A stretch of 64,000 nt of DNA from Alkalispirochaeta sp. (GTDB lineage: Bacteria; Spirochaetota; Spirochaetia; DSM-27196; Alkalispirochaetaceae), in the NCBI GenBank assembly GCA_965601925.1, contig OZ271854.1, forward strand, positions 4,128,001 to 4,192,000, given 5' to 3'. Position numbers and translations under genes: made by a program. Numbering within the stretch: the first letter of the stretch is position 1; every line of letters begins with the position of its first letter. The notes under the pieces were generated by a model. It was not told the DNA's origin, did no database searches, and worked only from the letters and a program-made list of their open reading frames with translations. Shown here one piece after another: positions 14,590 to 33,678 of the stretch.

Positions 14590-15011
14590 GTCTTCGGGCG
14601 CGTCTCCCCTTGTTCAACGAAGGGAGCGGCCGTCGGTGTCGATCACTCAGCAGGCCCTTCGGGCCAGAAGTCGTGCTCGCCACCGCCGTCCGTTCCCCGG
14701 CGCGTTTCAACAGAGATGTCTCGTCCTCTTGTGAGATGTCGGGGGGACCGGGCTCCGGGTTCCGGGTTCCAATTCCTCGGCCCGATCATGGGTGGATGGT
14801 GGTGCGGTAGTTCTTACGACGGCTTGTCGTACCCATCACGCACCGACCGCTTCTCGGCTCACTTCGGCCGCATACCCGAGCAGCACGCAGTGCGTGCGAC
14901 CAGGGGCCGATCGCCGGCGGTCGTCGCCCCGGGCCGGCTGCATGGGCGCGCGGCAATCCGCCAAGGATTGCGACCAGCCCCTGTGGGATTTCCTCCCTTC
15001 GCACTCGCGCT
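14590..15011 (-). repeat. Structured non-coding element, copy E1 (longest; island boundary)
   Basis: Shares core TCGGGCGCGTCTCCCC...GATCACTCAGCAGGCCCTTCGGGCCAGAAGTCG...CGCCACCGCCGTCCGTT with 18887-19122 and 23414-23742. Confidence 0.9.
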
Positions 15012-15116
15012 ACGGTAAGTCATGTCGCGTTTGGTTCAACTGCGCGGTTTCGCCCCACTTCATCGTCCAGATGAGGTTTTGGATCTCCACGTTATTGTAA
15101 AAACATATACCGACAG

Positions 15117-16037
15117 TCAGGGTCCTGACGGCACGTTGAACTCAAGCCGGAAGTCCGGATTTCGTGTTTGTAGTTCGTCAAGATGCTCATTGAACCACGA
15201 TTCGAGCCGCTCGTACGTTCCAGTCCGCGGTCCAAATACCGTGTTGTTGATACTGTCGATATACAAGGTCCGAATATTCGACTCCAACAATGCGTCGATG
15301 TTGTTGAGTTCGGGTGTCTGCATAATATTCAAATCAAACTCGCCTGGAGTTGTATCAATGTTGTCGAGCGAACGAATTTGCGTCGAATCGACCCTAAGCA
15401 CACTAAGTCGCGTCATCCCTGACATATCCGGCAACGAGGTAATCCCCGTAAATGCAACATCGAGATACTCGATGTGTTCGTTATTCACGAGGACATCAAT
15501 TGATGAAATATCAGACCGGAAAAGTGTCAAATGACGCACATCGGTGTCAGCAATATTGGCAATGTCTTCGACTCTATCATTGAATGACAACTGCGATAGG
15601 GACAACTCCTTAGGAAGCTCCGGAACAGTTCGGACGTCAATATAATAGGTGGAAATGCTATCAATCCAACTGATCGCCATAGGGGAAAGTCGTGCTAAAT
15701 TATGAAGCAATCCTGTATCAGATCGTATCTCGTCGCGCATACCGGGAACACCCAAGTTACGCGTCCTCGAAGACCATTCGCCATCATATTGGTCCGCATA
15801 TGCTGTTAGCTCGGCGTTGATTGCGTCGATCGTCTGTTGATCCAACTCGCCATCCGGCGTCATTAAGCGATCAGTTCCAAGAACTTCTGTCGTCGCCTCC
15901 TCATTGACCAAAACTACCGGTGCCGATGATATCGGCTCCGAATCGCTTGTGCCATCGACATCTTTCGAACACGCGCTAAGGCTAAGAAGCAGAAGTACAA
16001 AGCATATGAGAAAATACCATACTTGTTTCTTCATCAT
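15117..16037 (-). CDS. Leucine-rich-repeat lipoprotein, candidate immunity/accessory protein
   Basis: Lipobox LSAC; LRR-like units (VRHLTLFRSDISSIDVL, IEYLDVAFTGITSLPDM, LSVLRVDSTQIRSLDNI); AT-richer than flanks. Confidence 0.7.
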   Translation of the reverse strand: MMKKQVWYFLICFVLLLLSLSACSKDVDGTSDSEPISSAPVVLVNEEATTEVLGTDRLMTPDGELDQQTIDAINAELTAYADQYDGEWSSRTRNLGVPGMRDEIRSDTGLLHNLARLSPMAISWIDSISTYYIDVRTVPELPKELSLSQLSFNDRVEDIANIADTDVRHLTLFRSDISSIDVLVNNEHIEYLDVAFTGITSLPDMSGMTRLSVLRVDSTQIRSLDNIDTTPGEFDLNIMQTPELNNIDALLESNIRTLYIDSINNTVFGPRTGTYERLESWFNEHLDELQTRNPDFRLEFNVPSGP

Positions 16038-16062
16038 TACCGGTAAGATGACGATTCAAACA

Positions 16063-17082
16063 CTACTCGGCTTCGCGGTACTGATTTTCAGGTACTTTCC
16101 AAGCTCGAACGGTACGCTCAAGTCGCTCTATTGGTCGCTCCCATGTGTGGTTGCGAATGATGGCGCTGATGGCGGTGTCGTCCCAACGACTCCCGGGGTA
16201 CACATCCAGAATCTCGAGTTGCACGGATCGAGTCGGCGTAGGGAAGTTAATGTATGAGAGCTCGACGACATCTTCAAATGTGTATTCAAACTCAAACCGT
16301 GTTTCCGGGTCCGTCGATCGGATCATCGCCGTACGCACACGATTGTTCATTCGAAACAAATGACGTCGCTCAGGATCAACAAATCCATTGAGCACGAGCA
16401 TGTGATCAGAGGGCTCTTCAAAGGTGATATCAAGCGTTACGCCAATCCCCGGCCCCTCTTCGCCTTCGACCCACGGATTATGGAGTGCGTTCCAGTACAT
16501 TGAGATTTGGTCACCAAAGAAAATGCTGCGAAGCAGCTGTGGTCCATACACAACCTCTTCTCCGTTAACGTCTTCTGACAAGATAGAGTGCGCAGATATC
16601 GACTCAACCCCAAAGCTGTATATTCGATGAGGTTCATTTCCCTCCGTTGCGGGCTCCAAAATCCAGAGTGCGTTCGGATTGTGGGCATTTATCTCAGTGC
16701 TGAAAAGCTGAAGGAAATTACCGCCAAACAACGTGAAAAAATCTTGACCCATGATCGTCGTTTCGTAATATCCACTCTCTGTCAAGACAATATCGTCGAC
16801 ATTCATCTCTTGCCAAATGGTGTCGAAGAACCACGTCATTGTGTCGCCCTCGCGCACAACGAATGATCCCGCGACCGGGAAATACCCGAACGCATTAGCG
16901 GCCACTTCGACTATCGGTTCAGCCGAGCCTGCATCGTCACTAGGTTCAACCATCAAAAGATGTGTTTCGTCAGCTAACATCGGCTCGCCGTTTGCATTGA
17001 TGGCACGGGAATCCCCTTCGGATTGCCGACAAGAAATAACCGTGATCAGAAAAATGATAATACCGACTGTTACTCGTCTCAT
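16063..17082 (-). CDS. Lipoprotein with C-terminal discoidin-like/NADase-type glycan-binding domain, candidate immunity protein
   Basis: Lipobox VISC; PWVEG..GPGIG, LNGF, NNRV and LDVYPGSRWDDTAIS motifs; starts 3 nt after the cassette stop. Confidence 0.7.
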   Translation of the reverse strand: MRRVTVGIIIFLITVISCRQSEGDSRAINANGEPMLADETHLLMVEPSDDAGSAEPIVEVAANAFGYFPVAGSFVVREGDTMTWFFDTIWQEMNVDDIVLTESGYYETTIMGQDFFTLFGGNFLQLFSTEINAHNPNALWILEPATEGNEPHRIYSFGVESISAHSILSEDVNGEEVVYGPQLLRSIFFGDQISMYWNALHNPWVEGEEGPGIGVTLDITFEEPSDHMLVLNGFVDPERRHLFRMNNRVRTAMIRSTDPETRFEFEYTFEDVVELSYINFPTPTRSVQLEILDVYPGSRWDDTAISAIIRNHTWERPIERLERTVRAWKVPENQYREAE

Positions 17083-17085
17083 AGT

Positions 17086-18886
17086 TTAATAGTACCAACT
17101 GTACCACGTATCTTCGAAGGGGACTTCGAATAACGTTGCGTCGATATGGTACCCACTCTCCATACCGGTCGATTCTAGAAATCCGAAAGTCGATTGAATC
17201 GTATCGTGCGATGTCACAAAACATCCGTCAGAGAAACATCCACTCGCCCAATCGGATGTAGCACCGGCAGCTCTATTTGAATGAAGAAGCCACCGTTCCC
17301 AGTCTGTTCCGTTACGCCCATCGTTACCGATCGCCTGTCCATCCAGTGTTGCGGCATTGTTAAGAATCAGTACTGCGTTCTGATTGCCGTCAATCTCTCC
17401 TGCAAATCCCGACGACTGACCATAATACGTTATACCCAACGATCCCGGCGCGATCGTGTTTCCCTGCACATTGCCGTGTACCGGATGATCGAACGGCTGG
17501 CTTAAGTTATCACCGCGCCTGTTCGTTGTCATATTGTCGACGGTGTGATACCCGCCAAACGCATCACCCGCGATGAGGTTACCGTCCAAGTCGTACTGCT
17601 GAATCACCAGATGATCCTGACTCTGGCTTCCTGGGTTATAGAGGTCATCCTCGTAAGCCGACCAGCCATTGTAGGTGTCGGGATTGCGAAAGATCTCGGC
17701 CTTCACGGTCGAGTATTCATACGCGCCGTCGGTGTACTCAGCCAAAATCCGACCCTGCTCGGCAAGATTTCGGTCGGTCAACGTCATGCCCTCAACTGTA
17801 AAGCCGCCTTCTCCGTCTGCTTGCCAACGACCTGCATCACCATTCCACTCCGCTCCCGCATTCTTCAACAACGCCTCGCCCACTAAGCTGTTCCGTTGCG
17901 CATCCGTCAGCCCATCAAGGCTTGCTCCCGGGTCGTGGCGTAGTATCTGCACATCAACCGCCGAAAATCCAAACACATCCATGAGTGTCTGGTCATCGTA
18001 GTTGCTTGGATCTGTTATGTCGCCTCCTAATAGCTGTCCCGCGCGTTCGTCGTCAACAAGGTTTCCCAGCGATGCAGCCCACCCCATTTCGTTCTGAGCG
18101 CCCTGTCCTTCTGGCGTCATCGTGCTGATCACATCGCCTTCGGCGTTTAGATACTCGACGGTCAACTCTTTGCTCCCGTCGTCGATGAGCTCATGAGTTC
18201 CATCGGCGTGTACGACCAGTTTCCAATAATCCGCACTGGAATCATAGGCACCGCCCACATACGAGACAAAGTCGCTGAAGTCACCTGTCTTCTGCGCCTC
18301 CACCAACCGCTTCACCTCGTCCTGTTGCATCCCCGTCAGCTGCTCGTCTCCGTAGATCCCCGCGACCTGCTGCGCCACCAACGTGTGGCCGACGACCGCT
18401 TGTACCGTCTCCTGCTGTTGTCCCAGCTCCCCGTTATCCACCCCATCCCGAAACGCCTCGTGCGATAACGTCAGTCCCAGCTGATACTTACTCCCCGCAC
18501 TCGCGCCGTCTCCCAGGTAGATCTGCTTCTGTCCGTTGACCAGCTCCGTCTCGGCACGACCGTCCGTACCGCCCCGTACCAACCGCGCCTCGCCCGACAT
18601 CAACTCATCATACAGCGCTTCGGTTTCGGCCAGTCCCGACGTGTCCAGCATCCGCATCGCGATCGCCTCGTCTCCGCGGAATCCCTCACGATGGATGTCC
18701 AAGCTCCGCCGGTACGATGAGAATCCGCCCATCCCTTGCATCACCTGGCCCACGCTCATCCCGATGCCCCCCATGCCCACATTGAACACCGGTCGATCGC
18801 CCCCCAGATTCAGCTCCAGTAGTCCCGTACCCGTGGGTCCTCCGAGGTCGCTCATGCTCAACACATTCAACGTCGTTTGCCCCGTC
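17086..18886 (-). CDS. Orphan C-terminal cassette 2 of the giant protein; L,D-transpeptidase-like (YkuD/Tlde1-like) tip
   Basis: Begins with TGQTTLN..GLLELNLGGDRPVFNVG, homologous to the giant protein; HEAFRDG and DYWKL; terminal H-x16-SDGCF; no signal peptide; the ORF-track N-terminus is just translated repeat. Confidence 0.75.
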
Positions 18887-19122
18887 GGGCTTCGGGCGCG
18901 TCTCCCCCGGTTCCAATTCGGGGGGAGCGGTCGTCGGTGTCGATCACTCAGCAGGCCCTCCGGGCCAGAAGTCGCGACCGCCACCGCCGTCCGTTCCCCG
19001 GCGGAGTACCGTAGGTGTGTCTCATTCTCATATGGGATGTCGGGGGGAGACCGGGCTGCGGACTGATAGTCCTCAGCCCGGCAATGGGTGGATAGTGCTG
19101 TGATTACTCTTACGTCGGTTCG
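18887..19122 (-). repeat. Structured non-coding element, copy E2 (shorter)
   Basis: Alignable to E1/E3 from TTCGGGCGCGTCTCCCCC to CTTACGTCGGTTCG. Confidence 0.9.
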
Positions 19123-19185
19123 CCGCAACTACTCTGCGTACATTCTCTTGCAGAGACTTCTCGATCTCTGCTCGTATCATCCCCG

Positions 19186-19836: not shown

Positions 19837-20045
19837 CAGTGGTACCATCCCGTGAAAGGTGTGCCGGGCCGTGATAGCAAGCCGCGATACGAGCTCGGAT
19901 TGTTGCCTAAACCACCAGGAGGAATGCTACCACCCACGGCAAACGCCATGAGTCCCTCCGTGTGTCCAAAGTACGGAACTGGAGGTGGGGCCGGATTGTT
20001 GATACCTTCCACTGCGTAGTTATACAGCCACTGGCCGGCGGGCAT
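19836..20045 (-). pseudogene. Remnant toxin tip, paralog of the last ~68 aa of cassette 1
   Basis: AGQWLYNYAVEGIN..YFGHTEGLMAFAVGG..FTGWYH versus AGQWVYNYGVEGIN..YFGHTEELMAYAIGG..YTGWYY. Confidence 0.8.
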
Positions 20046-20289
20046 CTCTTGGCAGGTATCTATCAGGTCGGTCGTCAAACAACAATTCGGAACTCTGCTC
20101 CAACGCGTCGACACTGTTAAAGCATATGCTCTGATTGTTGTGCTAAAAAACATTGATCGCTCGTTTGTTCCTACCGCTTCATCTCCCGTTTCTCCACTTC
20201 AGCACTTGCATGAAGTATTGGATACCAAAAACCTGCTGCGTTCGCCGTGAGTCCTCATACAATTAACCAGCTTTAGTCTCGCCGTATCC

Positions 20290-20916
20290 TTACCAGCCCT
20301 CGGGTCGTTGCATTGTCGCGGTGATTCCGTAGTGATCCAAAAACGATTGGACAAATGGTCGAACTGCGTTTCGATCATCAGGCGGATCAAATCCCAACCA
20401 ACCACCCCGATGTAGTGTTCCGACAGTGGCGGTTAGCAAAAAGTTTTCCGCAGCGTCATTTCGCACAGTGAACTCGATCGCGCGAGCAACAAAACCCATC
20501 ATAAGTTCAGCTGCGCGCGGCTCTTGATCGGGATCCAGCATATCCATCTCTTCGGCTAAATCCTTTAGTCCTACTAAGGCCCACATACTAGAATCCGACA
20601 AATAGACGGACTCAACTGAAGCTATAATCGGGATGTCAGCCATAGTCACCAATATATGATCAGGCTCAAGGTCAGACCTAAAAGCAAGCTCATTAAGTAC
20701 ATCCAATGCGGTGGGTGATACATCTATATAATGGACTGAATGATATGTATAAGCCTCAACGAGCTCAGTGGTAGAAAGCTCATCGAAATCCTTTTCGGAA
20801 ATCGAATCAAAATACTCTTTAGAGGACCGTAAAGCGTCTTCACTGTCCCACCACTGTGCATGTATCGCGTCGATGAGTAACCCCAAGATGATTGAACAAA
20901 TTATCCATTTCTTCAT
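20290..20916 (-). CDS. Exported protein, candidate immunity for cassette 1
   Basis: MKKWIICSIILGLLIDAIHA signal peptide; TAATG stop/start overlap at 20914-20918; AT-rich. Confidence 0.75.
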   Translation of the reverse strand: MKKWIICSIILGLLIDAIHAQWWDSEDALRSSKEYFDSISEKDFDELSTTELVEAYTYHSVHYIDVSPTALDVLNELAFRSDLEPDHILVTMADIPIIASVESVYLSDSSMWALVGLKDLAEEMDMLDPDQEPRAAELMMGFVARAIEFTVRNDAAENFLLTATVGTLHRGGWLGFDPPDDRNAVRPFVQSFLDHYGITATMQRPEGW

Positions 20917-23413
20917 TAATAATACCATCCTGTATAGGGTGATGGAGGCGTCAGCAAACCATCAAATGATGGAGCACCAGGATAAGCCCGATCGGCTCCC
21001 ATGAAACCGCCAATAGCATACGCCATCAACTCCTCAGTGTGGCCAAAATATGAATAGGGAAAACCTGGACTGATAGACCTGTTGATGCCCTCGACACCGT
21101 AGTTGTATACCCATTGGCCCGCAGACGTCGTCTGGCCGGTCTTCAGCACACCGGTCGTCAATGCTCGCAAGCTGTGTACACCTTCATGCATAAGAACGGC
21201 CGCGCGACTCTGACTAATACGACCAGGCTGAAGATCGCCGGCTTGCAATGGAGTAAGCACAAACTCTCCAAAGCTCATCATACTTGGAAGTCGATTTAGA
21301 TTTGGTGCACTTCCCGCAATCTGTGAGCTGATTGATGCGGCTAACTCGAACTGTTTCGTCGTTAGTCCGAGCACACTCAAGTTATCTAACACATCTTGCG
21401 TACCCTGCTGCCCCAATCCGTTCAATGTTCCTTGCAACTCCTGCAGTGGCCCAACAAACACTGAATCCTGAGGATTGTTGAATAGTTGGTCGCCGAAACT
21501 ACCCGATGTCCGATCGTGCAGCATCTGAGCAACCATCTGGGTGTTAATTAGAGAATCGAACGATACGTTCACATTGGGCAAGAGTGCACTACCGGCAGGG
21601 TTCATATCGATTGCCTCACTCACCCCTTCGGCAAACGTCTCGGCCTGAAACGCCAGGTTGAACGCTTCGTTCTGCGTGTCCAAGAACTCCCGAAGCGGGA
21701 CCGTATTGCCGTTTCCGTCGACAACTTGGGTACTATGTTGATTGTTCGGTAGATTGACTTCTTCCCCTACCTCGATAGAATCCCGATCGACAAGATGCGG
21801 GTTCATCCCCACGATCATATCCACCAGCGCCGCAGCCTTCGGATCGTTTGGGTCGATGCCGTAGATCTCTTCAATTAGGCCGCCTAAGGTGTCCCCGGCC
21901 TCTACCTCAGAAACGAATCCTAAATCTCCCGTAGCATTGATCTCCTGCACCGTATGAAGCCAGTTATCCTCACTGAAATCATAGCCGGTCATCACGTGTT
22001 CGGCAAACGCACTGAAGTCGCCGCTCGCCAATGCCTCCTCCATCATGTCCGCCTGCTCGCGTAATGCCGCGTCGCTGTCCAAGAATCCTTCGTAGTCCTG
22101 CTCCATCCGCATCGCCATCAACGTGTGCGCCGCCACCGCATCAAACGTCTCCTCATATTGTCCCCGAAAACCGTCTCCGATCCCGTTCCGGTGCGCCTCG
22201 TGTTGTAGCACCACCCCCGCCCGCAGACGGCTATTCACATTGTCCCGACCCCGTTCGCCCAAGGTCCCCAGATGGATCGTCTTCCGGCCATTCTCCAGCG
22301 TCGTCTTTCCATCCTGATTCACAAACCCGATCGCCATATCCGTTCGTCCCGCCAGAATATCCTCGCGGGCCGCCTGTAGTTCCTCATCCCCGTACGAATA
22401 CGCCGATCGCAACATCGTCCCTTCCCGCCGTATCCCCTCATATCCTGCCGCATACCGCGTTCCGCCGAACAGCTCGTACGCTGTGTTCCGCATGTTCTCT
22501 TTCCACGTTCCGAACCCGGCAACTCCCTGCGCTACCGTCACCGCGCTCGCGTCGATTCCTCCCATACCCATATTGAATACCGGTCGGTCGCCGCCGATGT
22601 TGAACTCCAACAACCCCGTCGACACCATCGCACCATTCGCCATCTCGATGCCGAACATGTTCATATTCAGCATGTTCAACGTCGTCTCACCCGTCCACGC
22701 GTACTCCAGTCCCGCCTGTGCCGCACCGCCTACCAGACCGCTGAAACTCCTCGCTTGGCTTGCGTGTTCCGCGCTGAATCCTTCGAGGTTTCCTGCAACA
22801 CCCGCGCCCACAACCGCGCCGGCCAGTCCCGCCAGGGCGTCCTCGCTGATCGTCGCGTCCTGGAACGTGTCGGTGTTGAAGTCGATGTCAAAGAAGCTGT
22901 CGCTATTCCACTCCAGCGAGTTGATCGCCGCGCTCGTCGTCGTGCTTGCTACGTACTGCATCCCGGCCATCGCCGCCTGGCCCACCAACGTGCTTCCCAC
23001 GTTCACCACTTCACCCAATCCGCCGCTGATCAGGTTCGTCATGAGTGTCGCCGCGGCCTTCTTCCCAAACGCTTCCCACGCATCGTCCGCGTCTTGCGCT
23101 CCTACCGCCACGTCCAGGCTCGTGAAGATCGCGTCGTCGGTCATGCTGATCGCCGTCGAGACCGCCGCTCCCGCCGCGTTGCCCGCCACCGCCGTGACCG
23201 CCGCCCCCGCAACCGATGCCGCGACCGCAAACCCGATGTCGTACGCCATCGTCACCGTCGGGGCGCCCAATAGTCCGTCCGGCTTCCCGTCGTTGTTCGC
23301 GTCGTCGTCCCAGAATCGTTGGCGATACAGTGGTACTTCCATCGCCGCCAGTCCGCGGCCCAACCGCCCCTCGTTTTTCATGAACGATTCCATGATCCGG
23401 CCCATCTCGCCGT
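20916..23413 (-). CDS. Orphan C-terminal cassette 1 of the giant protein; LysM domain plus HExxH metallopeptidase-like tip
   Basis: First ~205 codons nearly identical to the giant gene at 26300-26915; LysM-like VEAGDTL..MNPHL..IEVGEEVNLP (~21748-21909); HEGVH at 21174-21188. Confidence 0.8.
22798..23413. repeat. 616-bp direct repeat of giant-gene segment 26300-26915
   Basis: Colinear near-identical DNA encoding GEMGRIME...AVVGAGV; differences mostly synonymous. Confidence 0.95.
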
Positions 23414-23742
23414 AGAGTCTCGGGCGCGTCTCCCCTGTTCCAATCACGGGGGCCGGCCGTCGATATCGATCACTCAGCAGGCCCTTCGGGCCAGAAGTCG
23501 CGATCGCCACCGCCGTCCGTTTCCCAGCGGTTTCTATCAGGTGTGGCTCGTCCTCGTATGATGTGTCGGGGAGACCGGGCTCCGGGTTCCAATTCCTCGG
23601 CCCGGCAATGGATGGATGGTGATGTGACTAATCTTGCGTCGGTCCGTTGGAATCACGCCGCGACGGCCGCTTCTCGGCTCACTGCCGATCGCCGGCGGTC
23701 GTCGCCCGGGCCTGTGGGATTTCCTCCCTCCGCCCTCGCGCT
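23414..23742 (-). repeat. Structured non-coding element, copy E3
   Basis: Alignable to E1 over its whole length (ends CTGTGGGATTTCCTCCCT..CTCGCGCT on the plus strand) except for two missing stem-loop modules. Confidence 0.9.
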
Positions 23743-23791
23743 CGTTGAGAGTTATGTTATTCCCAATAGCGATAGAGAGCGGCATAAAACG

Positions 23792-24463
23792 CTAAACCCC
23801 TTCGATCATGATGTACTGATCCGCCGGCACCTCTTCGATCAATTCAAGCGTCCCCGCATCGGGATCGATCCGAATAATCGCATCCGGATGAAACCACTGA
23901 TCGTATACCAACGGATCGGTTTCAAAGTCCCAGTGCTCCAACCCAAACGAGTACTCCACCCGCTCTCCGATGAGCGATGAGGGATCGGAAACCGCCGCCA
24001 AGTCTTGGATCGTCACCAACGTGTTCTCCTTCTCCACGATCAGCCAATCGGAGAGTCGATAACTGTCGCCGTCTCGACGTGAGTAGAAAAACACAGCTCG
24101 GTCGGCTAAAGCAGCAATGTTAAACCAGCCAGTATCTCCCGTTCGCGGGATCGACATTCCTCCGCTATGATAAGCTCTATTTTCTTGTTGTTTCTCTCGA
24201 ATCCATCGACTCATGGTTGGAGTTGGCAGTTGTGCTCCACGATATTGCTCAAAGTCCACCGTCTCGTTGTTTCCTGCGTCAATCTGCTCGAGCAATTCGA
24301 TCAACTCCTCGTCGGTCATGGTCGGTCGCTGTCCCTCGGCAACGACCGGCTCGCTCGCGGTCGTGTCCATTTCGGCACTCATCGGCTCTTGCGTCTCTGC
24401 AGGGCGTACACAGGAACCCAACATCACTACCAACACTATCGTCATCATTATTATCCTGGCCAT
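23792..24463 (-). CDS. Lipoprotein, candidate cognate immunity of the M23 domain
   Basis: Lipobox LGSC; starts 2 nt after the giant gene stop. Confidence 0.7.
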   Translation of the reverse strand: MARIIMMTIVLVVMLGSCVRPAETQEPMSAEMDTTASEPVVAEGQRPTMTDEELIELLEQIDAGNNETVDFEQYRGAQLPTPTMSRWIREKQQENRAYHSGGMSIPRTGDTGWFNIAALADRAVFFYSRRDGDSYRLSDWLIVEKENTLVTIQDLAAVSDPSSLIGERVEYSFGLEHWDFETDPLVYDQWFHPDAIIRIDPDAGTLELIEEVPADQYIMIEGV

Positions 24464-24465
24464 CG

Positions 24466-27400
24466 TCAGTTCCCGTAGATGTGTGCGTCGAGATGAAAGG
24501 TATATTCGGTCGGATCCAAGAAGATGAACGGATCATAGCGATACCCCGTTCCTCGTGGCAGACGCTGATTCGCGTTGCTCATCAAGCTGTCCACCAACGG
24601 ACTTCGCTGCTGTGTCGTTATATCCACATGCAAGTGATTCCCATACGGCGACACACCTGGCCATACCCCTGTGTTGCCCGAGAGCCCGAGTTGCGTATTA
24701 CCGAACACCAACTGACCGTCTGCAAGGTTCTCGTTTCGTGACTCAAGATGAAGGTAGCGGGTCAGGATCGAATCGGTGCGAGGCTCTCCCTTGAATGTAT
24801 ACGTAACATCCGTGCGTGTCTCCTGAAAAAGTCCTGCAGCCACATTCAAATCGTCTCCAAAATTGTTGAATCGTGTATTTCCCCCGAACATGGAATGGAC
24901 CGGCGTACCCGCGGGCACGGCAAAGTCCACCCCGGTGTGCGGATTGGCCGAGTATGACCCGGTCGCGCCGAAGATCGCCGTCACCTCCGAGCCCGCCATG
25001 ATGTTATTCACCTGCAGATTCGTCTCCCCCGTGATGAAGTTCTGCTCCTTCCACTGCTCGTAGCTGATCACATCCACCTCCGGTTGCCGCCCGTCCCAAT
25101 AGTCGGTCTCCGGTCCCAATACCACCGGTCGCTCCACGTCCATCAACCCTCGCGCTACCAGGTCATTATAGATATTCAGCGTGTTGTGTCCCGCCAGCCG
25201 CTCGTTATAGATCGCCGCATACCGCTCGTTGTCCAGTCCAATCGAGCGGCCCGCGTTGCCCTCGTGGTTCCACCATACGCCCTCTCCGCGAAGCTCGAAC
25301 TCCTCGCCCCGCAAGAGCTCCGCCGCCTCGGCCGCCCCGATTCCCAGGATGTTCTGCAATCCTCCCTGAATCCCCTCGGCACCGATCCGGTTCCCGTCGT
25401 CGTCCAGGATGTAATTCCCGTTCGAGTCCTTCAACCACCCGTCTTCGGTCATCACCAACGAGCCGTCTTCCATCAGTTTCCAGTTATCCACCGGTCCCTG
25501 ATTCGGGAGGTAGCTCCGGCCGTCCGCCAATGCATCCTCGATACTCTGCTCAAAGGCCGCATTCCCCTCCAACTCTAACGCCGCGACCACATTGTTGTAC
25601 ACCGCATCACCCACCAGATGGGCGTTCGCCTCCGTCGTCTCCCCGGTCAGCATCCGGTCAAACAAATGCGTTCCCTCGTGCGCCGCCACCGACGCCAACA
25701 TCGCCGCCGTCTCTTTGTCATTCGCCAGCAGGTCTCGGTTCATCACGATTGTCGTCGGATCCGCTCCATGGTTGTAGTATCCGTAGTGTCCTTCGTCCAG
25801 ATCCTCATAGCGCGTCTGGATGTCTTTATTCCACACCCCCGTTGCCAACGCCAGATTCCCCGCGATCGCATTGTAGTTCACCAGATTCAGGTCACCTCGA
25901 CTCTCAATTCCCCGTTTAGTACCCAATGCGCCGCCGATCTTCGCACTCCCGATCCGCGCAATATCGCTCATACCGCCCATCGCCGTCGCAATCGAGCCCA
26001 CGTCAAAGCTCGTACCCCCGCTTCCCACGTTGAACGCAGGGCCGTCGCCGCCGATGTTGAACTCCAACAGTCCCTGACTCAGGATTCCAGGCCCATCGCC
26101 CGTCTCATACTCGATACCCAGCATGCTCAGGTTCACCAGGTTCGCCGTCGTGTCTCCCGTCCATGCGTAGTCCACACCCATCTTGGCTGCGTTCCCCGCA
26201 AGACTCGAAAAGCTCGTGATCGCGTCGGTGTCGAATACCTCGCTGTTCAACGCAACGCCCGTGCCGTCCGATCCCAGGAAGTCTCCCAGTCCGCCGGTCA
26301 CCCCCGCTCCCACAACCGCGCCGGCAAGGCCCGCCAGGGCGTCATCGCTCATCGTCGCATCCTGGAAGGTGTCGGTGTTGAAGTCGATGTCGAAGAAGCT
26401 GTCCGAGTTCCATTCCAACGAGTTGATCGCCGCACTTGTAGTGGTGCTTGCCGCGTATTGCATGCCCGCCATCGCCGCCTGGCCCACCAACGTGCTGCCC
26501 ACGTTCACCACTTCTCCCAATCCGCCGCTGATCAGGTTCGTCATGAGTGTCGCCGCGGCCTTCTTCCCAAATGCCTCCCACGCATCGTCCGCGTCTTGCG
26601 CTCCTACCGCCACGTCCAGACTCGTGAAGATCGCGTCGTCGGTCATGCTGATTGCCGTCGACACCGCCGCTCCCGCCGCGTTCCCAGCCACCGCCGTGAC
26701 TGCACCGCCGACCACCGATGCCGCGATCGCAAACTTGATGTCGTACACCATCGTCACCGTCGGTGCGCCCAACAGTCCGTCCGGTCTCCCGTCGTTGTTT
26801 GCGTCGTCGTCCCAGAATCGTTGGCGATACAGCGGCACTTCCATCGCCGCCAGTCCGCGGCCCAACCGCCCTTCGTTCTTCATGAACGCTTCCATGATCC
26901 GGCCCATCTCGCCGTGACCCGCTTCCTGCACTCGCTCCGGGTTGTCGCTGCGCATGATCGGCGCGTAGCCGACGTGGAAGTTGAATAGTCCTTCCGTGTC
27001 GTGGTGCAGGTACTCCTCCTCGCCGCTCTCTTCATTCTCCCGCGTCCGGTGGTAGCCCGCCGCCGCTTCCCAACTCGCGGTGGCTGCCGCAAAGCGCTCT
27101 TTGAGCTCGCCGTTCAGCTCCTCGATACTGATCGCGCCGGTTCCTTCGTCTTTCTGGTCGTCGTTCCGTCCGAAGATCAGAATCTGATATCGCTCCATCT
27201 CTTCGTACGCCGCCGCGATCATCGTCTGGATGCCTCGACTCGACAAGCCGTCCAACGACTCCTCCGAGAGGTCCACCTGGGGTGCAAAGACCGGTGAGGT
27301 GAAGTAACGATAGTCTTCTACTCGCTGTGTCTCTCGTTCGATGCCCCCAAACAGCGTCTCATCGATGATGATCCGGCGACTCCATTCTCGTCCCGATAAG

Positions 27401-30400
27401 CGGTATCCTTCCCGCTCGAAGGTGTCCTCGATGCTTCCCGCCATGTTCCGGTTCGCGTCGTCTATCCCGTCGGTCGCCGCGTTGATCCCTTCGCGGATCT
27501 GTTCCCGCATCTGCAATGCCGTCACGCGCATCGCGCGCCGCTGGATCTCTTCGCCCAACTCGTCCGATAGCGCTCGGGCGCTTCGCGCACTCTGCGTCGT
27601 CGAGCGTACCCGCGGCAGATACGCCGCCACGATCGGGCTCCCGCCGGCGCGGTCGGCGATCCGGCCCGCCTCGCGCACGATCGTCGAGAGCATCCGTCCG
27701 TCGGTCGCCTCCCGCACCGTGTGTTCCAGATTCCCCACTTCGATATCCAGATCCGGGACTGCGATCGCTTCGCTTTCGGCGATCAGCCGTTCGGCGTCCA
27801 GTCCCACTTGTCGCGCCGTCGCCTCGCTCCCGGCGCGCACCGCGTGCTGCGTCGTCCGTTCGATCCATTCCGTACGCGATTGCGTCATCCGGTCGTAGCG
27901 GGCGTTCCACACCGCCACCGCCTCCGCATACGCCTCCTGCGTCTCTTCCTGGAACCGTTTCCGCTGTCCCGCCAACCGGACCGATCCCGCCTGCCACTCC
28001 GTGAGGCCCGTCGCCACGAGGCTGTTCATCCGGACCGTCCAGTCGTCCTCGCGACGCATCAGCGTCTCGTACTCCATGGTCAGGCGGTGGGATTGCGCGG
28101 TATGGACGCCGCCCAGGCGCATCCCCGCCGCGTCGTGAATGTGGGCGGCGATCAGCTCCAGCTGAAATGCCCGCGCCTCGTCGTTGAAGGTCGCAAGAGC
28201 GCCGGTCGGCGCTCCCGTCGTACCGCGGCGAATCAAGACCGCCTCCATCGATCCCTGTCGATACGCCATGTGGTCGGCGATGTCGTAGGCGGGGTCGGCA
28301 AAGCGCGTGCGCGTCACCGTCTCCAGCTCCGCCTCGGTGACCTCTTCGCCCCGCAGATAGCGTCCCAACACCGTCTCGTAGGATATCTGGTCGTTCTGTT
28401 GCACCGTCGCCAGCTCCGCGATCCGGTCGGCGACCGCCGTTCCCGCGGTATGGACGTCCGATGCCAACCGCGCCTCGGCGGCGGCAAGGACCGAGAGGCT
28501 CGTCGCGCGCTCCGATGCGCTTCCGCCGCTCACCACCTCGGCAATCATGGCGCTCAGTTCGGCCGAAATCGCACCGGTACCCGACGCGGTCAGGGAGGTA
28601 CGCACCTCCGCCGCGGTGGGGCGTTTGCCCGCCAGTACGCGCAGCTCGGCCGCCTTCGTATTCTGATCGTCAAGCGCCGTCGTTCCTTCGCCGAATAGTT
28701 CCATCGAGACCGTCCGCTCGTCCGCACCGGAGTAGTTCGGCAGCTGTCGCCGCAGGCTTCGGATACGCTTACCTCGGCGTCGCTTGAAGATCCGTCGGAG
28801 CCGCATGTAGTCCCGCTGCTTGTCCCGCGCCCGGTCGTCCACGTACTCGCGCGCGATATGTGAGACGTCGTCGGCGACCCACGTAACGTGGTCGGCGGCA
28901 AACGATACGTTCTCCCCGCCGTGCACCACTACCATAGAAAAGAAGCGATAGGCGCCCAGTGCCAAACTGTTCCCGTGCACCCGATGGTGTGCCGCCTCGA
29001 GGTCGTTTCTGACGCGGCTGTCCACGCTTCCTTGAGACCATCCGATCTTGCCCAATAGGTTATTGAAGGTCTGATTGTTGTAGATCGGCGCTTTGGTCAC
29101 CGCATAGTCATCCTCAGGATGAACACCGGCAAAATAGAGGTCGTAATACAACGCCAGGCCGATATCGCGATATACTCCGCCACCCAGTTGGTTCATCGTG
29201 CGAATCCATGCACCCAAATCGGTCGAAAAGGCTTCCTGCCAGTCGCCGGAGAAGTAGCCGGCGGTCTGAAACCGTTCCGAATTTCCCGAAATCCGTCCCG
29301 TACCGATCGCGTCGTAGTCCGGTGCGAAGGTATAGTCCGCGCCGTATACCAGCTGATGGGCCGTCCGTGCGACCTCCATTTGGCTCGCCGCCAATGCACC
29401 TTCGGCCCCCGAGGTCTTGACCGCCAACGTCTCCCGGACCACCGCCGCCTCTTGGTAGGTCAGCATCGCCTCGCGCTCCTCGGCGATGAGGTCTTCGTAG
29501 CGCTGGTCCCGACTCGCGTCGGTCACACGCTCGGCGTGCTCTTCCACCAGACGCAAGGCGGTGCGCGCTCGTTCCAACTCCTCGCTCCGCCGCAGCACCA
29601 CCGCCGCCGGGTCGATCTCGTCGGTCAGATACCCGGTGCGCGCGTAGTCCATGATCTCCTCGGCCTCTTGTAGCTCCCGGCGTGCCGCAGTATACGCGCC
29701 CCGCGCCGTATCCACTCCGCTCGCCGCCGCCGCATAGTCCGTTACCGCCTCATCAAAGGCGCGAATCGCCTCCTCGTACTCCCGTCGGGCGTCGTCCACC
29801 CTCCCGCGCTGCGTCTTGATATCTTCCTTCAGCGGGGCGATGGTATTTGTCGCAAACTGCGCGGCATCCGCCTCAAAGTCCGCCTGCGTCGCCCGCGCCG
29901 CATCCAGGTCACCCAGCGTCCCCAGATAGGTCGACTCGGCACCCAGAAAGGTCGTCCGGGCGCCGGATCGTGCGCTCCCCGCCGCCCCGTCGGTCACCAA
30001 CTCCACGATCTCGTCGCGGCTGCTCGTCGTCAACGCCGCGATCGCCTCGCCGATCAGTCCCTTGATCGGCGCGCTCGCGATCCCCCCGGTAGTCGTCGGG
30101 CTGGTCAGGGTGTGATAGCTCGTGTCACCCGCCTCGTCCACCAGATGTCGCAACCACGCCGCCCCGGCGTTGGCTTTCGTCAGACCCTCGTACTCACTCC
30201 GCAGGGCGCCGACACCCGCGTCGTCGGCACTCCCGCCGACCGCGGCCGCCGCCGCATCGCGATCATCCGTACTCGCATCCGGGTCTTCCAACACCTCCAA
30301 CGCCGCGGCCAATACTTCGGCGCGCTCCCGATTCTCCACGGGACCCACGAACGACACCGACCCACCCAGCTCCGCGATCCGCGCCCGCGTGTACACCGTC

Positions 30401-33400
30401 ACCAGGTCCGCCACCGCCGTGGGAATGTCGTCCATCGCCACCAGCTCTTCGTAGATATCCCGCAACGTCGCAATGGACGGAACGGTGTCTCCCGTGGTGA
30501 TCGGCGCCACGATCGCCGTTACCGTCGCCGCGTAGACGGCCATTCGCGTCCCGATCGTGGTGATCGAGACCTCCCGATACGCCTCCCACGCGTCCCGTAA
30601 CGCCTCGGCGTCGGCGAGTGCCGTCACCTCGTCGCGAAGCAGATCGTCCACGAGTCCCGCGTAGTCGACGCCGAAGTCCGTATCCCGCTCTCCGGTCTCA
30701 AAGACGATCCGCGCCGCTCCCGCCGCATCGCTCCCGTCCGAAAGCGCATCCACGTCGATCGTCACCAGAGACGGGTCAAAGACCACATACGCCACCCCCG
30801 GCGGCGGCGTGCCCGCTCCCGTGTCGTCGGTCATGATATAGACCGTGCCGATCGCCGGATCCGCGGGGATCTCGCTCGCATCGGCTACCGTCACCACCGT
30901 CGGCTCCGTCGGCGCACTCAGGCCCGCGTCCACGGCCGCCGTCACCGCCGCCGCGTAAGCACTCGTCACCGCCGTATCTCGCGCCGCATCGATCATCGCG
31001 GCCTCCGCCGCCACCAAGGTGTCGTAGTGTCCTTGGATCGCGTCGCGCGCCGCCTCTCGCGCCGCGTCCAGAGCCGTGTAGGCCGCCGTCACCGCCGTGG
31101 TGTGGCCGTCCCCGATCACCGCGATCTCATCCGCGCTCGCCCATCCCGCCTCGTCGGTCACCACCGTGCCGCGCAATACGCGGATCGCGTACTCGCTCCG
31201 CGCCACATCCCGTGCCGCCGCCGCGGTCGCATCCGCCAGCAGCCGTTCCGCCGCCAGCTCGCGCAGCCGTCGTTCCGGTGTCCCCGTCCCCACCGCCGTC
31301 GCCGCATCGATCGCCGCCACCAGGTCCGCATACCGTCCCGTCTCGATATCGAGTCCCGCCGCCGCCAAGGTCAGTCCCAGCTCCTCGGCGTCCACCGTCG
31401 CCCAATCGATCGCGAGCCCCGCGAGTACATCTCGGTGCGCGATCAGCGTCGGAAGGTCGACGTACTCGTCGCTCTCCGCATCGTCACTCCCGGCAAGGTC
31501 ATGGGCGATCGAGAGCGCGTCCTCCCACGCCGTCGCCACGTGCGCATCCGCGTCGGCTCTCGCATACGCCTCCGCATTCGCCGCACGCCCTTCGCCGGCG
31601 TGCGTCGTAACGTGATCGGAGAGGGTGCGAATCAACGTGTCGTAGACGCTCGCGTCGTTTAACCGCTGCACCTCTTCCGCCGCCGCAAGCTCCGCGGTAA
31701 TCCGTCGCAGCTCCGCCTCCTCGATCGAGAGCGCCGCCTGCCGGTCCGCCAACGCCGCCTGGGCGTCGGGTAACAGCGTCCGCGTCATCGTCTCCAAGGT
31801 CGCGATCGCCTCGGCAAACGCCGCCTCCGCCGCCTCGAACGCCGCCCGCTCCACAGCATAGCGCGCCTCGGTCTCGGCCAACGTCGCGCGGTCCGAGGAG
31901 GTATCCGCCGCGTATGCGGCCACCGCCTCGGCAATGGCGTGCTGATCCTCCAGCGCGGCGACCATGCCCGCCAGTCGCGCCGCCTCCACCTCGCCGGAGC
32001 TCAACGCCGCCCCGTAGGTGTCCAGCTCGCCGAACATCCCGTACAGACTCGCCTGGGCGCCGTCGCGCATCGCCTCGAAGTCCGCCAACACTCCGCCGGT
32101 CCCGTCCGCGCCGTGCCAATAGACCAGCTCCTCGTTTACCTCCGCCAACGGCGCGTGCGTCGCCGCATACCGCCCGTTGATGAGGTCTAAATCCATGAGA
32201 ATCTTCGCTGTCGGCGCCTGATGGTCGTAGGCCGCTACACCAAAACGGTTCTGTAACCACGCTACCCACTCGGCCTCGTGGTCACGAACGTAATTGCCTA
32301 TGTTAGTGAACGGATGTCCGAGACTTTGAGCTGTAAATGTTCTCTTCAGATCAAAATCACCATCGTGGTTGCTCAAAAACGTGTTGTATCGCGCATTCGC
32401 AAGCTCGGTCTGTTTCGCTTTGCGCTGCGAGAGATAGGTTGTTTGATCATCGAGGAGAGCGGTACGCATCTCCTCCAAGGCGGCGATATTGCGCTTCGCC
32501 ATCGCCACCACGTCGGCCGCTTGGCGATACACCGCCAGATACGCCTCGCTCTCCGATCGGATCTTCGCCTGTTCTTCCGCCGCCGCACGGGCAAGCTCCG
32601 CCATCGTCTCGTCAAACGAGTCCCGAAACGCCGTCGTCGTCTCCTCCCACGCCGCCGCACCTACCGCCAGCACGTCCTGCATCTCTCCGATCCACGCGCT
32701 CCGCGACGCCTCGAACGATCGCAACGCCTCGTCCCACGCCGCCTCCGCCTCGCGATACTGCTCCTGCGCCTCCGACTCCCACGCCATCCGTTCGGCGATA
32801 AATCGCTCTTCCGCACCGTTCCACGCGCTCAATCCCCGCGCAAACTCCGCCTCAAAGCTCTCCTGCCACGCCTCCGCCTCTATCCGCGCCTCGCCCACAT
32901 CCGCGTCACCCTCCGGTACCAACGCCGCCAGATGCGCGCTCACCTCGTCCAACCTCACCTGCGTGTCGCGAATCAACCGCCCCGCCGTCGACCGCGCCGT
33001 CTCCTCCTCCGCCTGCCGCCGCATGCTGTAGCTGTCCTGTAACCGCCCCTGCGCCAACCGCCGGCTCGATCGTATCACCTGCGACCGAAACTCCCGCTCG
33101 ATATGCGCCTTGTACTCGCCCACCGATACCGCCAGCTCGCTCGCCACCGTCTCCCGCACCGCGCCCTCAAACGTTCCCAACACCTCCGTCGCCGTCGCCT
33201 CCGCGCTCGCTTCCCACGCCGTGTACAACGCCGCAAACGCACCCTCGACCTCCGCCTCCCACGCCGCCGCGGCCGCCTCGTATCCCTCCGCACCCTGCAG
33301 GATCACATCCCCCGCCTCGTCGAAGGTGTACTCGCCCCCGCCGTCGGTCTCGTACAGATATCGCCGATTCGCCGCATCGATCGCGCGCCGCAGCCCCGCC

Positions 33401-33678
33401 GCGTCAAACCGCGCCACCGACCGCTCCCATTCCGCCTCGACCACCCGGCCCAGACTCGCCGCCCACCGGTCGCCCAGGGCCGCCGTCTCCCACTCGTCCA
33501 GCCCCCCCAGGCCGATCCCCGTCACCGCCTCCCATTCCGCGATGCTCCCGCTGCGACTCGCCCGCTCGTACACACCCTCGCCGACGACGTGATCGCCCGT
33601 CTCAACGTCGTCCGGCATCTGCCCGACGACCGTTCCCGTGCATGCCGCGATCAGTACTGCGATTCCTATTCGTCTCAT
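24466..33678 (-). CDS. Giant (3070 aa) exported helical protein with C-terminal M23 peptidase; putative polymorphic toxin
   Basis: N-terminal hydrophobic signal; AGAGG RBS; Ala/Glu-rich coiled-coil body; HEGTH (25666-25680); M23 motifs HTGVD (24925-24939), YLHL, GNTG and HLH (24628-24636). Confidence 0.85.
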   Translation of the reverse strand: MRRIGIAVLIAACTGTVVGQMPDDVETGDHVVGEGVYERASRSGSIAEWEAVTGIGLGGLDEWETAALGDRWAASLGRVVEAEWERSVARFDAAGLRRAIDAANRRYLYETDGGGEYTFDEAGDVILQGAEGYEAAAAAWEAEVEGAFAALYTAWEASAEATATEVLGTFEGAVRETVASELAVSVGEYKAHIEREFRSQVIRSSRRLAQGRLQDSYSMRRQAEEETARSTAGRLIRDTQVRLDEVSAHLAALVPEGDADVGEARIEAEAWQESFEAEFARGLSAWNGAEERFIAERMAWESEAQEQYREAEAAWDEALRSFEASRSAWIGEMQDVLAVGAAAWEETTTAFRDSFDETMAELARAAAEEQAKIRSESEAYLAVYRQAADVVAMAKRNIAALEEMRTALLDDQTTYLSQRKAKQTELANARYNTFLSNHDGDFDLKRTFTAQSLGHPFTNIGNYVRDHEAEWVAWLQNRFGVAAYDHQAPTAKILMDLDLINGRYAATHAPLAEVNEELVYWHGADGTGGVLADFEAMRDGAQASLYGMFGELDTYGAALSSGEVEAARLAGMVAALEDQHAIAEAVAAYAADTSSDRATLAETEARYAVERAAFEAAEAAFAEAIATLETMTRTLLPDAQAALADRQAALSIEEAELRRITAELAAAEEVQRLNDASVYDTLIRTLSDHVTTHAGEGRAANAEAYARADADAHVATAWEDALSIAHDLAGSDDAESDEYVDLPTLIAHRDVLAGLAIDWATVDAEELGLTLAAAGLDIETGRYADLVAAIDAATAVGTGTPERRLRELAAERLLADATAAAARDVARSEYAIRVLRGTVVTDEAGWASADEIAVIGDGHTTAVTAAYTALDAAREAARDAIQGHYDTLVAAEAAMIDAARDTAVTSAYAAAVTAAVDAGLSAPTEPTVVTVADASEIPADPAIGTVYIMTDDTGAGTPPPGVAYVVFDPSLVTIDVDALSDGSDAAGAARIVFETGERDTDFGVDYAGLVDDLLRDEVTALADAEALRDAWEAYREVSITTIGTRMAVYAATVTAIVAPITTGDTVPSIATLRDIYEELVAMDDIPTAVADLVTVYTRARIAELGGSVSFVGPVENRERAEVLAAALEVLEDPDASTDDRDAAAAAVGGSADDAGVGALRSEYEGLTKANAGAAWLRHLVDEAGDTSYHTLTSPTTTGGIASAPIKGLIGEAIAALTTSSRDEIVELVTDGAAGSARSGARTTFLGAESTYLGTLGDLDAARATQADFEADAAQFATNTIAPLKEDIKTQRGRVDDARREYEEAIRAFDEAVTDYAAAASGVDTARGAYTAARRELQEAEEIMDYARTGYLTDEIDPAAVVLRRSEELERARTALRLVEEHAERVTDASRDQRYEDLIAEEREAMLTYQEAAVVRETLAVKTSGAEGALAASQMEVARTAHQLVYGADYTFAPDYDAIGTGRISGNSERFQTAGYFSGDWQEAFSTDLGAWIRTMNQLGGGVYRDIGLALYYDLYFAGVHPEDDYAVTKAPIYNNQTFNNLLGKIGWSQGSVDSRVRNDLEAAHHRVHGNSLALGAYRFFSMVVVHGGENVSFAADHVTWVADDVSHIAREYVDDRARDKQRDYMRLRRIFKRRRGKRIRSLRRQLPNYSGADERTVSMELFGEGTTALDDQNTKAAELRVLAGKRPTAAEVRTSLTASGTGAISAELSAMIAEVVSGGSASERATSLSVLAAAEARLASDVHTAGTAVADRIAELATVQQNDQISYETVLGRYLRGEEVTEAELETVTRTRFADPAYDIADHMAYRQGSMEAVLIRRGTTGAPTGALATFNDEARAFQLELIAAHIHDAAGMRLGGVHTAQSHRLTMEYETLMRREDDWTVRMNSLVATGLTEWQAGSVRLAGQRKRFQEETQEAYAEAVAVWNARYDRMTQSRTEWIERTTQHAVRAGSEATARQVGLDAERLIAESEAIAVPDLDIEVGNLEHTVREATDGRMLSTIVREAGRIADRAGGSPIVAAYLPRVRSTTQSARSARALSDELGEEIQRRAMRVTALQMREQIREGINAATDGIDDANRNMAGSIEDTFEREGYRLSGREWSRRIIIDETLFGGIERETQRVEDYRYFTSPVFAPQVDLSEESLDGLSSRGIQTMIAAAYEEMERYQILIFGRNDDQKDEGTGAISIEELNGELKERFAAATASWEAAAGYHRTRENEESGEEEYLHHDTEGLFNFHVGYAPIMRSDNPERVQEAGHGEMGRIMEAFMKNEGRLGRGLAAMEVPLYRQRFWDDDANNDGRPDGLLGAPTVTMVYDIKFAIAASVVGGAVTAVAGNAAGAAVSTAISMTDDAIFTSLDVAVGAQDADDAWEAFGKKAAATLMTNLISGGLGEVVNVGSTLVGQAAMAGMQYAASTTTSAAINSLEWNSDSFFDIDFNTDTFQDATMSDDALAGLAGAVVGAGVTGGLGDFLGSDGTGVALNSEVFDTDAITSFSSLAGNAAKMGVDYAWTGDTTANLVNLSMLGIEYETGDGPGILSQGLLEFNIGGDGPAFNVGSGGTSFDVGSIATAMGGMSDIARIGSAKIGGALGTKRGIESRGDLNLVNYNAIAGNLALATGVWNKDIQTRYEDLDEGHYGYYNHGADPTTIVMNRDLLANDKETAAMLASVAAHEGTHLFDRMLTGETTEANAHLVGDAVYNNVVAALELEGNAAFEQSIEDALADGRSYLPNQGPVDNWKLMEDGSLVMTEDGWLKDSNGNYILDDDGNRIGAEGIQGGLQNILGIGAAEAAELLRGEEFELRGEGVWWNHEGNAGRSIGLDNERYAAIYNERLAGHNTLNIYNDLVARGLMDVERPVVLGPETDYWDGRQPEVDVISYEQWKEQNFITGETNLQVNNIMAGSEVTAIFGATGSYSANPHTGVDFAVPAGTPVHSMFGGNTRFNNFGDDLNVAAGLFQETRTDVTYTFKGEPRTDSILTRYLHLESRNENLADGQLVFGNTQLGLSGNTGVWPGVSPYGNHLHVDITTQQRSPLVDSLMSNANQRLPRGTGYRYDPFIFLDPTEYTFHLDAHIYGN
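26300..26915. repeat. Giant-gene copy of the 616-bp repeat shared with cassette 1
   Basis: Matches 22798-23413. Confidence 0.95.

Follow-up and report, generated by a model that had tools for sequence, protein, structure and literature searches.

A strand-specific hairpin at the orphan toxin junctions of an Alkalispirochaeta genome is the core of a dispersed structured repeat

Within a 64,000-nt stretch of an Alkalispirochaeta sp. genome (hereafter the window, to which positions refer unless genome coordinates are named), three related segments, E1, E2 and E3, lie on the minus strand among a giant toxin gene and partial copies of it. A preliminary description had proposed that each folds into a long irregular stem on that strand only, and that selection acts on the single-stranded fold, possibly of DNA rather than RNA. 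The locus raises the questions of what the folded unit is, in which molecule it folds, and what it does at the toxin genes. Read along the minus strand, the array runs from a 3070-aa gene and a small gene through E3, toxin fragment 1 with two to three small low-GC genes, E2, toxin fragment 2 with two low-GC genes, and E1 to housekeeping genes. The coding features referred to below are the following.

24466..33678, minus strand: main giant toxin gene, 3070 aa, Ala/Glu-rich, with a signal peptide and a C-terminal Peptidase_M23 domain
23792..24463, minus strand: small gene after the main toxin gene, 223 aa, with a hydrophobic N-terminus and without a Pfam family; presumed, from position only, to be an immunity gene
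20916..23393, minus strand: orphan toxin fragment 1, 825 aa, with homology to the main gene
17086..18855, minus strand: orphan toxin fragment 2, 589 aa, starting 36 nt past the E2 core, with homology to the main gene from query position 396
15117..17082, minus strand: two low-GC genes after fragment 2, which are cassette cargo; 339 aa, NADase_transloc-like, and 306 aa, weakly matching LRR; each has a hydrophobic N-terminus

Both fragments are copies of the 3′ portion of the main gene. For fragment 1, the amino-acid identity to it is 75.6% over query positions 144-459, the homology beginning right at the 3′ end of E3, and the same pair shares a 300-nt direct repeat (22798-23097 and 26300-26599) of 91% DNA identity. 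Such direct repeats between the main gene and the orphans would offer ready-made homology for recombinational swapping of toxin tips. A 60-nt block is common to the three toxin genes (18767-18826, 22558-22617 and 26015-26074). The cassette genes between 15117 and 23393 have a GC content of 0.49-0.57 per 2 kb and a GC3 of 0.44-0.55, against approximately 0.60-0.65 and 0.7 in the surrounding genome, a composition that suggests a foreign origin of the cargo. The gene at 16063-17082 (minus strand) matches the NAD glycohydrolase translocation F5/8 type C domain (E = 1.1e-11), which is unusual in a presumed immunity or accessory gene.

Extraction of the three 66-nt stretches returned the minus-strand arms as they had been written (in E1, CGGACGGCGGTGGCGA and TCGACACCGACGGCCG), with the outer 16 positions comprising 13 Watson-Crick pairs and the three purine-purine mismatches described, namely A.G, G.A and G.A. 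The reported differences among copies were also borne out: in E3, C>T changes at positions 55 and 57 each convert a G-C pair to G-T, while in E2 an A>G change at position 16 converts A-T to G-T and a G>A change at position 63 falls on the existing A.G mismatch. The tips are GAA in E1 and E3 and GGA in E2, closed by GGCCC/GGGCC as stated. Two changes shared by E2 and E3 had been missed, a G>T at position 17 that turns a fourth G.A mismatch into T-A, and an A>G at position 19 that adds one further G-T pair. When both strands were folded with DNA and RNA parameters, the minus strand of E1-E3 gave the same hairpin, more stable than that of the plus strand (with DNA parameters, -23.9, -20.6 and -17.8 kcal/mol for E1, E2 and E3, versus -14.0, -11.9 and -10.9). 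The helix extends past the 66-nt stretches, so that the complete hairpin measures 76 nt, and the stem first noticed is the core of a larger repeated structured element, whose parts in the window are listed here.

23449..23524, minus strand: irregular hairpin of E3, that is, the original stem plus 5 nt on each side, identified by pairing, covariation and G-U excess
23478-23494, minus strand: apical stem-loop of E3, GAA tip
23420..23583, minus strand: core of E3, 164 nt, matched by covariance model R1 at 160 bits
23568-23580 (5′ strand, GCCCGGUCUCCCC) and 23424-23435 (3′ strand, GGGGAGACGCGC), minus strand: outer helix P1 of E3
23414..23741, minus strand: full-length E3 element, about 328 nt, delimited by the alignment of copies and by terminus motifs
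23723-23741, minus strand: 5′ end of E3, GCGCGAGGGCGGAGGG
18892..19059, minus strand: core of E2, 168 nt, with its hairpin at 18923-18998 and a GGA tip
14594..14756, minus strand: core of E1, 163 nt, with its hairpin at 14622-14697

The element core spans approximately 165 nt, in which the outer helix closes round the 76-nt irregular hairpin; in E3, P1 encloses a conserved GAGGACGAGAC stretch together with the hairpin. Full-length copies measure about 330 nt and have defined ends, starting with GCGCGAGGG... and finishing with ...GGGGAGACGCGCCCG. The 3′ end is fixed and the 5′ part is more variable, having at least two versions and inserts that may be present or absent. The 5′ extension of E2 is unlike those of E1 and E3, as in a mosaic, and the full E1 element reaches about position 15010, its 5′ extension carrying some 100 nt extra. 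E3 ends with ...GACGCGCCCGA and about 6 variable nucleotides, directly followed by orphan toxin homology, whereas E1, the final element of the window array, has no toxin homology after it. A longer autonomous element sharing these termini was sought and discarded as a candidate, all terminus-motif matches falling in known copies or small fragments. One mini-copy of about 40 nt (genome positions 2781574-2781592, minus strand) joins the 5′ end GCGCGAGGGATCG... almost directly to the 3′ end ...GGAGACGCGC and may have arisen by internal deletion or been left behind by excision.

To follow the element beyond the window, the whole studied genome was searched, a single contig of 5.05 Mb with 96.7% completeness. 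An nhmmer search found 16 full element cores in addition to partial copies, and the covariance model R1, built from these 16 cores (166 positions, 38 pairs), recovered all of them at 78-175 bits along with about 12 weaker, hairpin-only or variant copies, bringing the hairpin copies in this genome to approximately 28. Two loci (4264857-4265386 and 4931048-4931553) each hold two opposed elements a few hundred bases apart, and at the former a variant hairpin type with other flanks (CCACCAAGCG... / ...CACGCGC) faces a standard copy. Among 61 related genomes, most of them fragmented so that repeats may be missing from the assemblies, R1 matched only a congener (G009, 130 bits) and a member of a sister genus (G019, 43 bits). 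Rfam gave no match at gathering score in the 64-kb window, and at E values up to 10 the region 23380-23800 gave a single chance-level match (E = 3.3); a group I or II intron, a ribozyme and a known leader were ruled out, there being no Rfam match. An IUPAC pattern of the internal loop, run on one genome per species for 185,579 species, returned 104 stretches, and R1 applied to 80 of these 104 gave a best E value of 0.045, none being convincing, while pattern scans of metagenomes for the element gave no matches. The element is a new, lineage-restricted family of structured repeats absent from Rfam, and even if it were merely a lineage-specific repeat, it would be a useful marker and a structured family new to Rfam.

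The fold is supported by covariation among 24 sense copies aligned to the model, in which 93.7% of 841 cells hold standard pairs and 22 of the 38 pairs have changed on both sides. None of 500 shuffles reached any of five covariation measures, and sliding the partners by 1-3 columns left only 33-47% paired; this alignment was fitted to the model and so leans to structure and slightly favours G-U, but the margin is nevertheless large. The copies are paralogues, and neither the covariation nor the mismatch counts represent independent events. The outer helix P1 has 11 pairs, 7 of which changed on both sides, and is 86% paired; the hairpin helices comprise a two-part long stem of 21 pairs and an apical stem of 6 pairs that varies among copies in length and tip. 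The irregular region between the long and apical stems is invariant (5′-GAC-UUC / GCUGAG) and shows G.A and A.A oppositions in all 24 copies. The cGNAg triloop, originally put forward as part of the folded core, is not a conserved feature, since the alignment places it in only 12 of the 28 hairpins (GAA 5, GGA 4, GCA 2, GUA 1), the other tips being of different kinds in 13 (among them UUCCU, CCC, CUU, UCU and UCUG) and an inserted module of about 35 nt in 3. By the same alignment reading most tips are triloops, and no GNRA or UNCG tetraloop was seen among the 28. Folding of the single 291-nt E3 sequence gave uninformative z-scores of 0.5 and 0.1. A riboswitch-like switch between the helices GUCUC/GAGAC and CUCCC/GGGAG was rejected, as it has no covariation and 95 of 500 shuffles were as good.

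These copies also allow wobble pairs to be counted for each strand. In the hairpin helices of the 24 copies, G-U pairs number 43 and A-C oppositions 7, the G-U pairs being spread over 18 different columns, so that substitutions do not break pairing equally on the two strands. The six often-interrupted helix columns hold 83 purine-purine and 0 pyrimidine-pyrimidine mismatches, and the sense hairpin exceeds the antisense one in stability by about 7 kcal/mol on average, in 24 of 24 copies with DNA parameters and in 21 of 24 with RNA parameters. Selection therefore acts on the fold of one strand, in the window the minus strand, as had been proposed, and the ratios of 43:7 and 83:0 are unusually clean data for the question of whether such selection concerns a DNA strand or an RNA. 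The energies and the mismatch types fit both molecules. The DNA reading is favoured only indirectly, because of the mobility of the element, the independence of its orientation from neighbouring genes and its frequent triloops, and we tentatively infer that the folded molecule is DNA. The position of dnaA (1.594 Mb) and a skew minimum at 1.6 Mb put the replication origin near 1.595 Mb, with the terminus close to 3.85 Mb. Of 21 loci, 15 have the sense strand in the leading-strand sequence, which corresponds to the lagging-strand template; this trend falls short of significance (p = 0.08 for an expected 0.5, and p = 0.11 with the 56% of genes as background).

Outside the arrays, 17 dispersed loci adjoin genes for EF-G, ValRS, GMP synthase, IlvD, trigger factor, regulators and transporters, and a scan of the 37 ORFs flanking dispersed loci found no shared function and no transposase family. 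The element is accordingly independent of toxins and of any one gene function. By heuristic ORF calls, it points the same way as a neighbouring gene at about 13 loci and runs antisense to every adjacent gene at about 9; its 3′ end falls within about 40 nt of a convergent gene's stop codon at 12 of 18 singletons, and in the arrays and at 4 singleton loci a start codon of the same orientation follows it after 23-55 nt. Comparison with relatives identifies sites occupied in one genome and empty in another. The gap between the EF-G paralogues, taken as match-to-match distance, is 659 nt in the studied genome versus 86-156 nt in 14 congeners; there the element begins 2 nt past the stop codon, and the congener G004 has a short hairpin instead. 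At the HlyIII site the element begins right at the stop codon and is absent in all four relatives in which the orthologue was found. The copy in G009, about 322 nt long and with the same 5′ extension, lies between two RHS/YD-repeat stretches of one reading direction, interrupting an Rhs gene; a search for the empty site with the upstream 149 aa as query found no orthologue in 17 genomes. The element is therefore insertion-polymorphic and has moved to new sites.

The most interesting lead is the link between the 3′ end of the element and the orphan toxin junctions. The studied genome has three main toxin genes, the one in the window and two at paralogous loci; the second array (1.324-1.338 Mb) contains five elements, and downstream of the third main gene come just its small gene and two elements. 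At each of the three giant-toxin loci, the element follows the presumed immunity gene. All six orphan fragments in the genome start at an element 3′ end, and at four of four independent DNA-alignable junctions the main-gene homology starts with ACG, 6 nt past ...GCGCCCGA, a triplet absent at most of the singleton junctions read. After the final element of each array there is either no fragment or a 30-aa remnant. Since the element 3′ end stands at every orphan junction, it may have made these junctions or brought toxin-immunity cargo into resident toxin genes, and would in either case have had a role in building the arrays; its copies are proposed now to provide portable homology between cassettes. 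Orphan toxin-immunity arrays are still mostly ascribed to unspecified illegitimate recombination, and their building gains here a concrete candidate agent, a defined structured repeat at the junctions that is tied to two toxin families (the giant M23-tipped toxins and an Rhs gene) in two species.

A six-frame search of the 5.05-Mb genome gave no match to the HUH Y1 transposase or RAYT family (PF01797), which the same search found in 6 of 14 reference genomes as a control, and none to TnpB (PF07282); neither a reverse transcriptase nor an IS110 transposase was found in the genome. None of the window ORFs scanned (11 in the array and 31 flanking it) belongs to an integrase, recombinase or transposase family, so that across the genome and the window ORFs respectively no HUH Y1 enzyme or integrase was found that would give substance to the analogy with attC sites and HUH substrates drawn at the outset. 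The only HUH candidate is a single IS91-like Y2_Tnp match (42.9 bits, genome positions 3753892-3755228, minus strand), single-copy and frameshifted into two overlapping frames (221 and 232 aa), and probably a pseudogene. It was rejected as a partner, local alignment of its flanks with the element scoring at noise level (18-22).

The element is best read as a mosaic non-coding repeat, a miniature mobile DNA of the REPIN or MITE kind. That it is specifically a REPIN-like non-autonomous element acting as single-stranded DNA is held tentatively, with a probability of about 0.45. In such a scheme, one strand, usually the lagging-strand template, would fold as single-stranded DNA when exposed in replication; a putative trans-acting nuclease or transposase would recognise the hairpin by its invariant internal loop, GAC-UUC / GCUGAG, with the G.A and A.A mismatches; and this putative enzyme would copy the element into new sites. 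In the sections of PMC3116915 that were consulted, REPIN long hairpins are described as carrying compensatory changes between their arms and as predicted to form in single-stranded DNA or mRNA, and the element resembles the REPINs described there in being a short non-coding repeat, mostly extragenic, often at gene ends and in clusters (PMC3116915). It also has compensatory changes across its hairpin (22 of 38 pairs, 0 of 500 shuffles). It differs from REPINs in that this genome has no RAYT/Y1 gene, in that the arms of its long hairpin differ at fixed purine-purine positions and do not look like two inverted short palindromic REPs (none was seen within an arm), in its larger size (165-330 nt), non-palindromic conserved flanks and outer helix, and in having about 28 copies, not hundreds, that are tied to toxin cassette junctions. 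A RAYT partner is thought to define REPIN-type systems, and because it is lacking the element stands outside REPIN membership; it would add a hairpin-based miniature mobile element without a RAYT partner. IS200/IS605-derived elements (PATEs, TnpB guide RNA) differ in a similar way, there being no TnpA (Y1) or TnpB in the genome and no transposase among the 37 flanking ORFs. E. coli BIMEs and the neisserial NIME and Correia elements are modular mosaics of variable order and orientation, the neisserial ones clustering round silent surface or toxin cassettes; the element shares their modular mosaic build but has no sequence relation to them, and is distinguished in that its common denominator is one long hairpin that covaries and whose internal loop is invariant. 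Several observations count against the single-stranded DNA mobile reading: the negative searches for Y1/RAYT, TnpB, reverse transcriptase and IS110 genes, the frameshifted state of the only HUH candidate, the non-significant replication-orientation bias, the outer covarying helix, the variable apical stem, six of six inserted modules in sense orientation, a copy number low for a REPIN-like population, and the fact that neither a target-site duplication nor a terminal inverted repeat beyond GCGCG was seen at element copies.

Part of that evidence would suit a structured RNA, as long-range covarying helices, variable apical stems and inserted hairpin modules are usual in such molecules. The sense strand would then be transcribed under a promoter lying in the 5′ extension or within neighbouring mRNAs, and the fold of about 165 nt would bind a protein or control the downstream gene; in the arrays it would be the leader of the orphan toxin fragments, the copies being paralogous RNA genes or UTR elements that are incidentally mobile. 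This is a serious rival, though less probable than the DNA reading; the three covarying helices including the long-range closing P1, the G-U pairs with conserved G.A/A.A positions in a purine-rich internal loop, the changing length of the apical stem, and the 3′ ends lying 23-55 nt ahead of co-oriented start codons in the arrays and at four singletons are all consistent with it, as is the module GCGUACCGCAG...CGAGGAACGC, always in sense in six apical loops and arranged elsewhere in tandem arrays, one of them with a promoter-like stretch. Neither a sigma-70-like promoter nor an intrinsic terminator is present in or at the three window copies, about nine loci are antisense to every neighbouring gene and one copy lies inside an ORF; moreover, no Rfam family matches even at E values up to 10, the switch helices tried lack covariation (95 of 500 shuffles as good), the tips are mostly triloops without a GNRA or UNCG tetraloop, and the SD-like GGGGAG is too distant from start codons. 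A decaying functionless repeat, whose strand specificity would come from the shared ancestry of a few master copies together with strand-biased mutation, is very improbable. The copies are indeed paralogues of one genome, with counts that are not independent, several are partial, the mini-copy of about 40 nt joins the two ends and a partner enzyme was not found, but divergent copies whose arms have little sequence in common from copy to copy have kept their pairing, with 22 pairs changed on both sides and G-U in 18 columns; there are 0 pyrimidine-pyrimidine against 83 purine-purine mismatches, and the replication skew in the genome, 1-3%, is far too small for a 6:1 ratio of G-U to A-C.

The array itself recalls cassette systems, and the element could be a cassette recombination site, either attC-like or a rolling-circle origin end of the IS91/ISCR type, at which a site-specific enzyme would cleave and rejoin the folded strand; units of toxin 3′ part, immunity gene and element would then have been captured into resident toxin genes, building the orphan arrays. 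AttC sites, such as the Vibrio VCRs, are strand-specifically folded imperfect palindromes, one per cassette, in which the arms vary and pairing is kept. The element is alike in these respects and in size (76 nt), one copy standing after each array cassette, the last (E1) included, and the six of six orphans that start at an element 3′ end, with ACG at the start of four of four alignable junctions, agree with capture. Against it, integrase, recombinase and transposase families are missing from the scanned window ORFs (11 array, 31 flanking), the conserved GTTRRRY/RYYYAAC boxes (R″/L″ and L′/R′ in attC) are absent from the alignment, GTTGAAC being confined to two copies, one of them E1, where it lies within a variable linker away from the foot of the hairpin, and most copies are dispersed singletons by housekeeping genes, in either orientation, with ACG missing at most singleton junctions. 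The cassettes here, moreover, are 4-4.5 kb long, hold several genes and start with truncated toxin fragments, and the short-read contigs show no joined or excised forms beyond paralogue cross-matches. As to the rolling-circle version, the parts of PMC13181058 consulted describe IS91-family elements as inserting without target duplication, with a short target by oriIS, subterminal palindromes and a strand-specific single-stranded DNA intermediate, and the element is like IS91/ISCR in its subterminal imperfect palindromes and strand specificity, and may be so in having one constant end by a short preferred target, in lacking target duplication (none was seen) and in that DNA adjoining the other side could travel along (PMC13181058). 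Its constant 3′ end and variable upstream extent recall the one-ended transposition of that family (PMC13181058), and a Y2 transposase remnant is present in the genome; the sole Y2 gene, however, is frameshifted and single-copy with unrelated flanks, and the ACG preference appears only at toxin junctions. Altogether this explanation seems improbable. It is likewise doubtful, to the same degree, that the element is the working end of an undescribed system for capturing polymorphic-toxin cassettes, with the hairpin and fixed 3′ end as a rolling-circle origin; if so, cargo of an upstream toxin tip and immunity gene would enter resident toxin genes at ACG, the old tip being stacked as an orphan, and the system would be an integron-like arsenal builder without an integrase beside the array. 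CDI and Rhs orphan modules, in the portions of PMC3150448 consulted, are displaced 3′ toxin fragments with immunity genes, located downstream of a full-length gene and sharing a stretch of upstream homology with it (PMC3150448). The orphans described here have the same placement and shared homology, but a structured repeat precedes each of them, its 3′ end forming the junction, and no such repeat was found described for CDI/Rhs loci in those portions.

Short-read contigs from three runs of one sample break at the repeats over 13800-24700; four contig joints and the 32-nt 'between' letters read as cross-matches between paralogues and not as rearrangements, and the contigs show no joined or excised forms besides. 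At genome positions 1324100-1327900, within the second array, an IS3-like ORF pair (266 and 194 aa) lies between two nearly identical genes of 266-269 aa and two elements; it looks as if an insertion had occurred there together with a local duplication.

A second strand-asymmetric hairpin family, of the form GCGUACCGCAG-[variable tip]-CGAGGAACGC with a covarying closing stem, has about 55 matches in the genome and no match in Rfam. Its module is inserted in the apical loop of six element hairpins, in sense orientation in all six, and it forms five tandem arrays of 4-9 copies with periods of 45-100 nt, at the following genome coordinates.

1522632-1523223: tandem array of the second hairpin family
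1529101-1529427: tandem array of the second hairpin family
2060595-2060998: tandem array of the second hairpin family
2356835-2357254: tandem array of the second hairpin family
4987919-4988126: tandem array of the second hairpin family

One of these arrays is preceded by an AT-rich promoter-like stretch and followed by an inverted copy and a hairpin, an arrangement that looks like a transcription unit.
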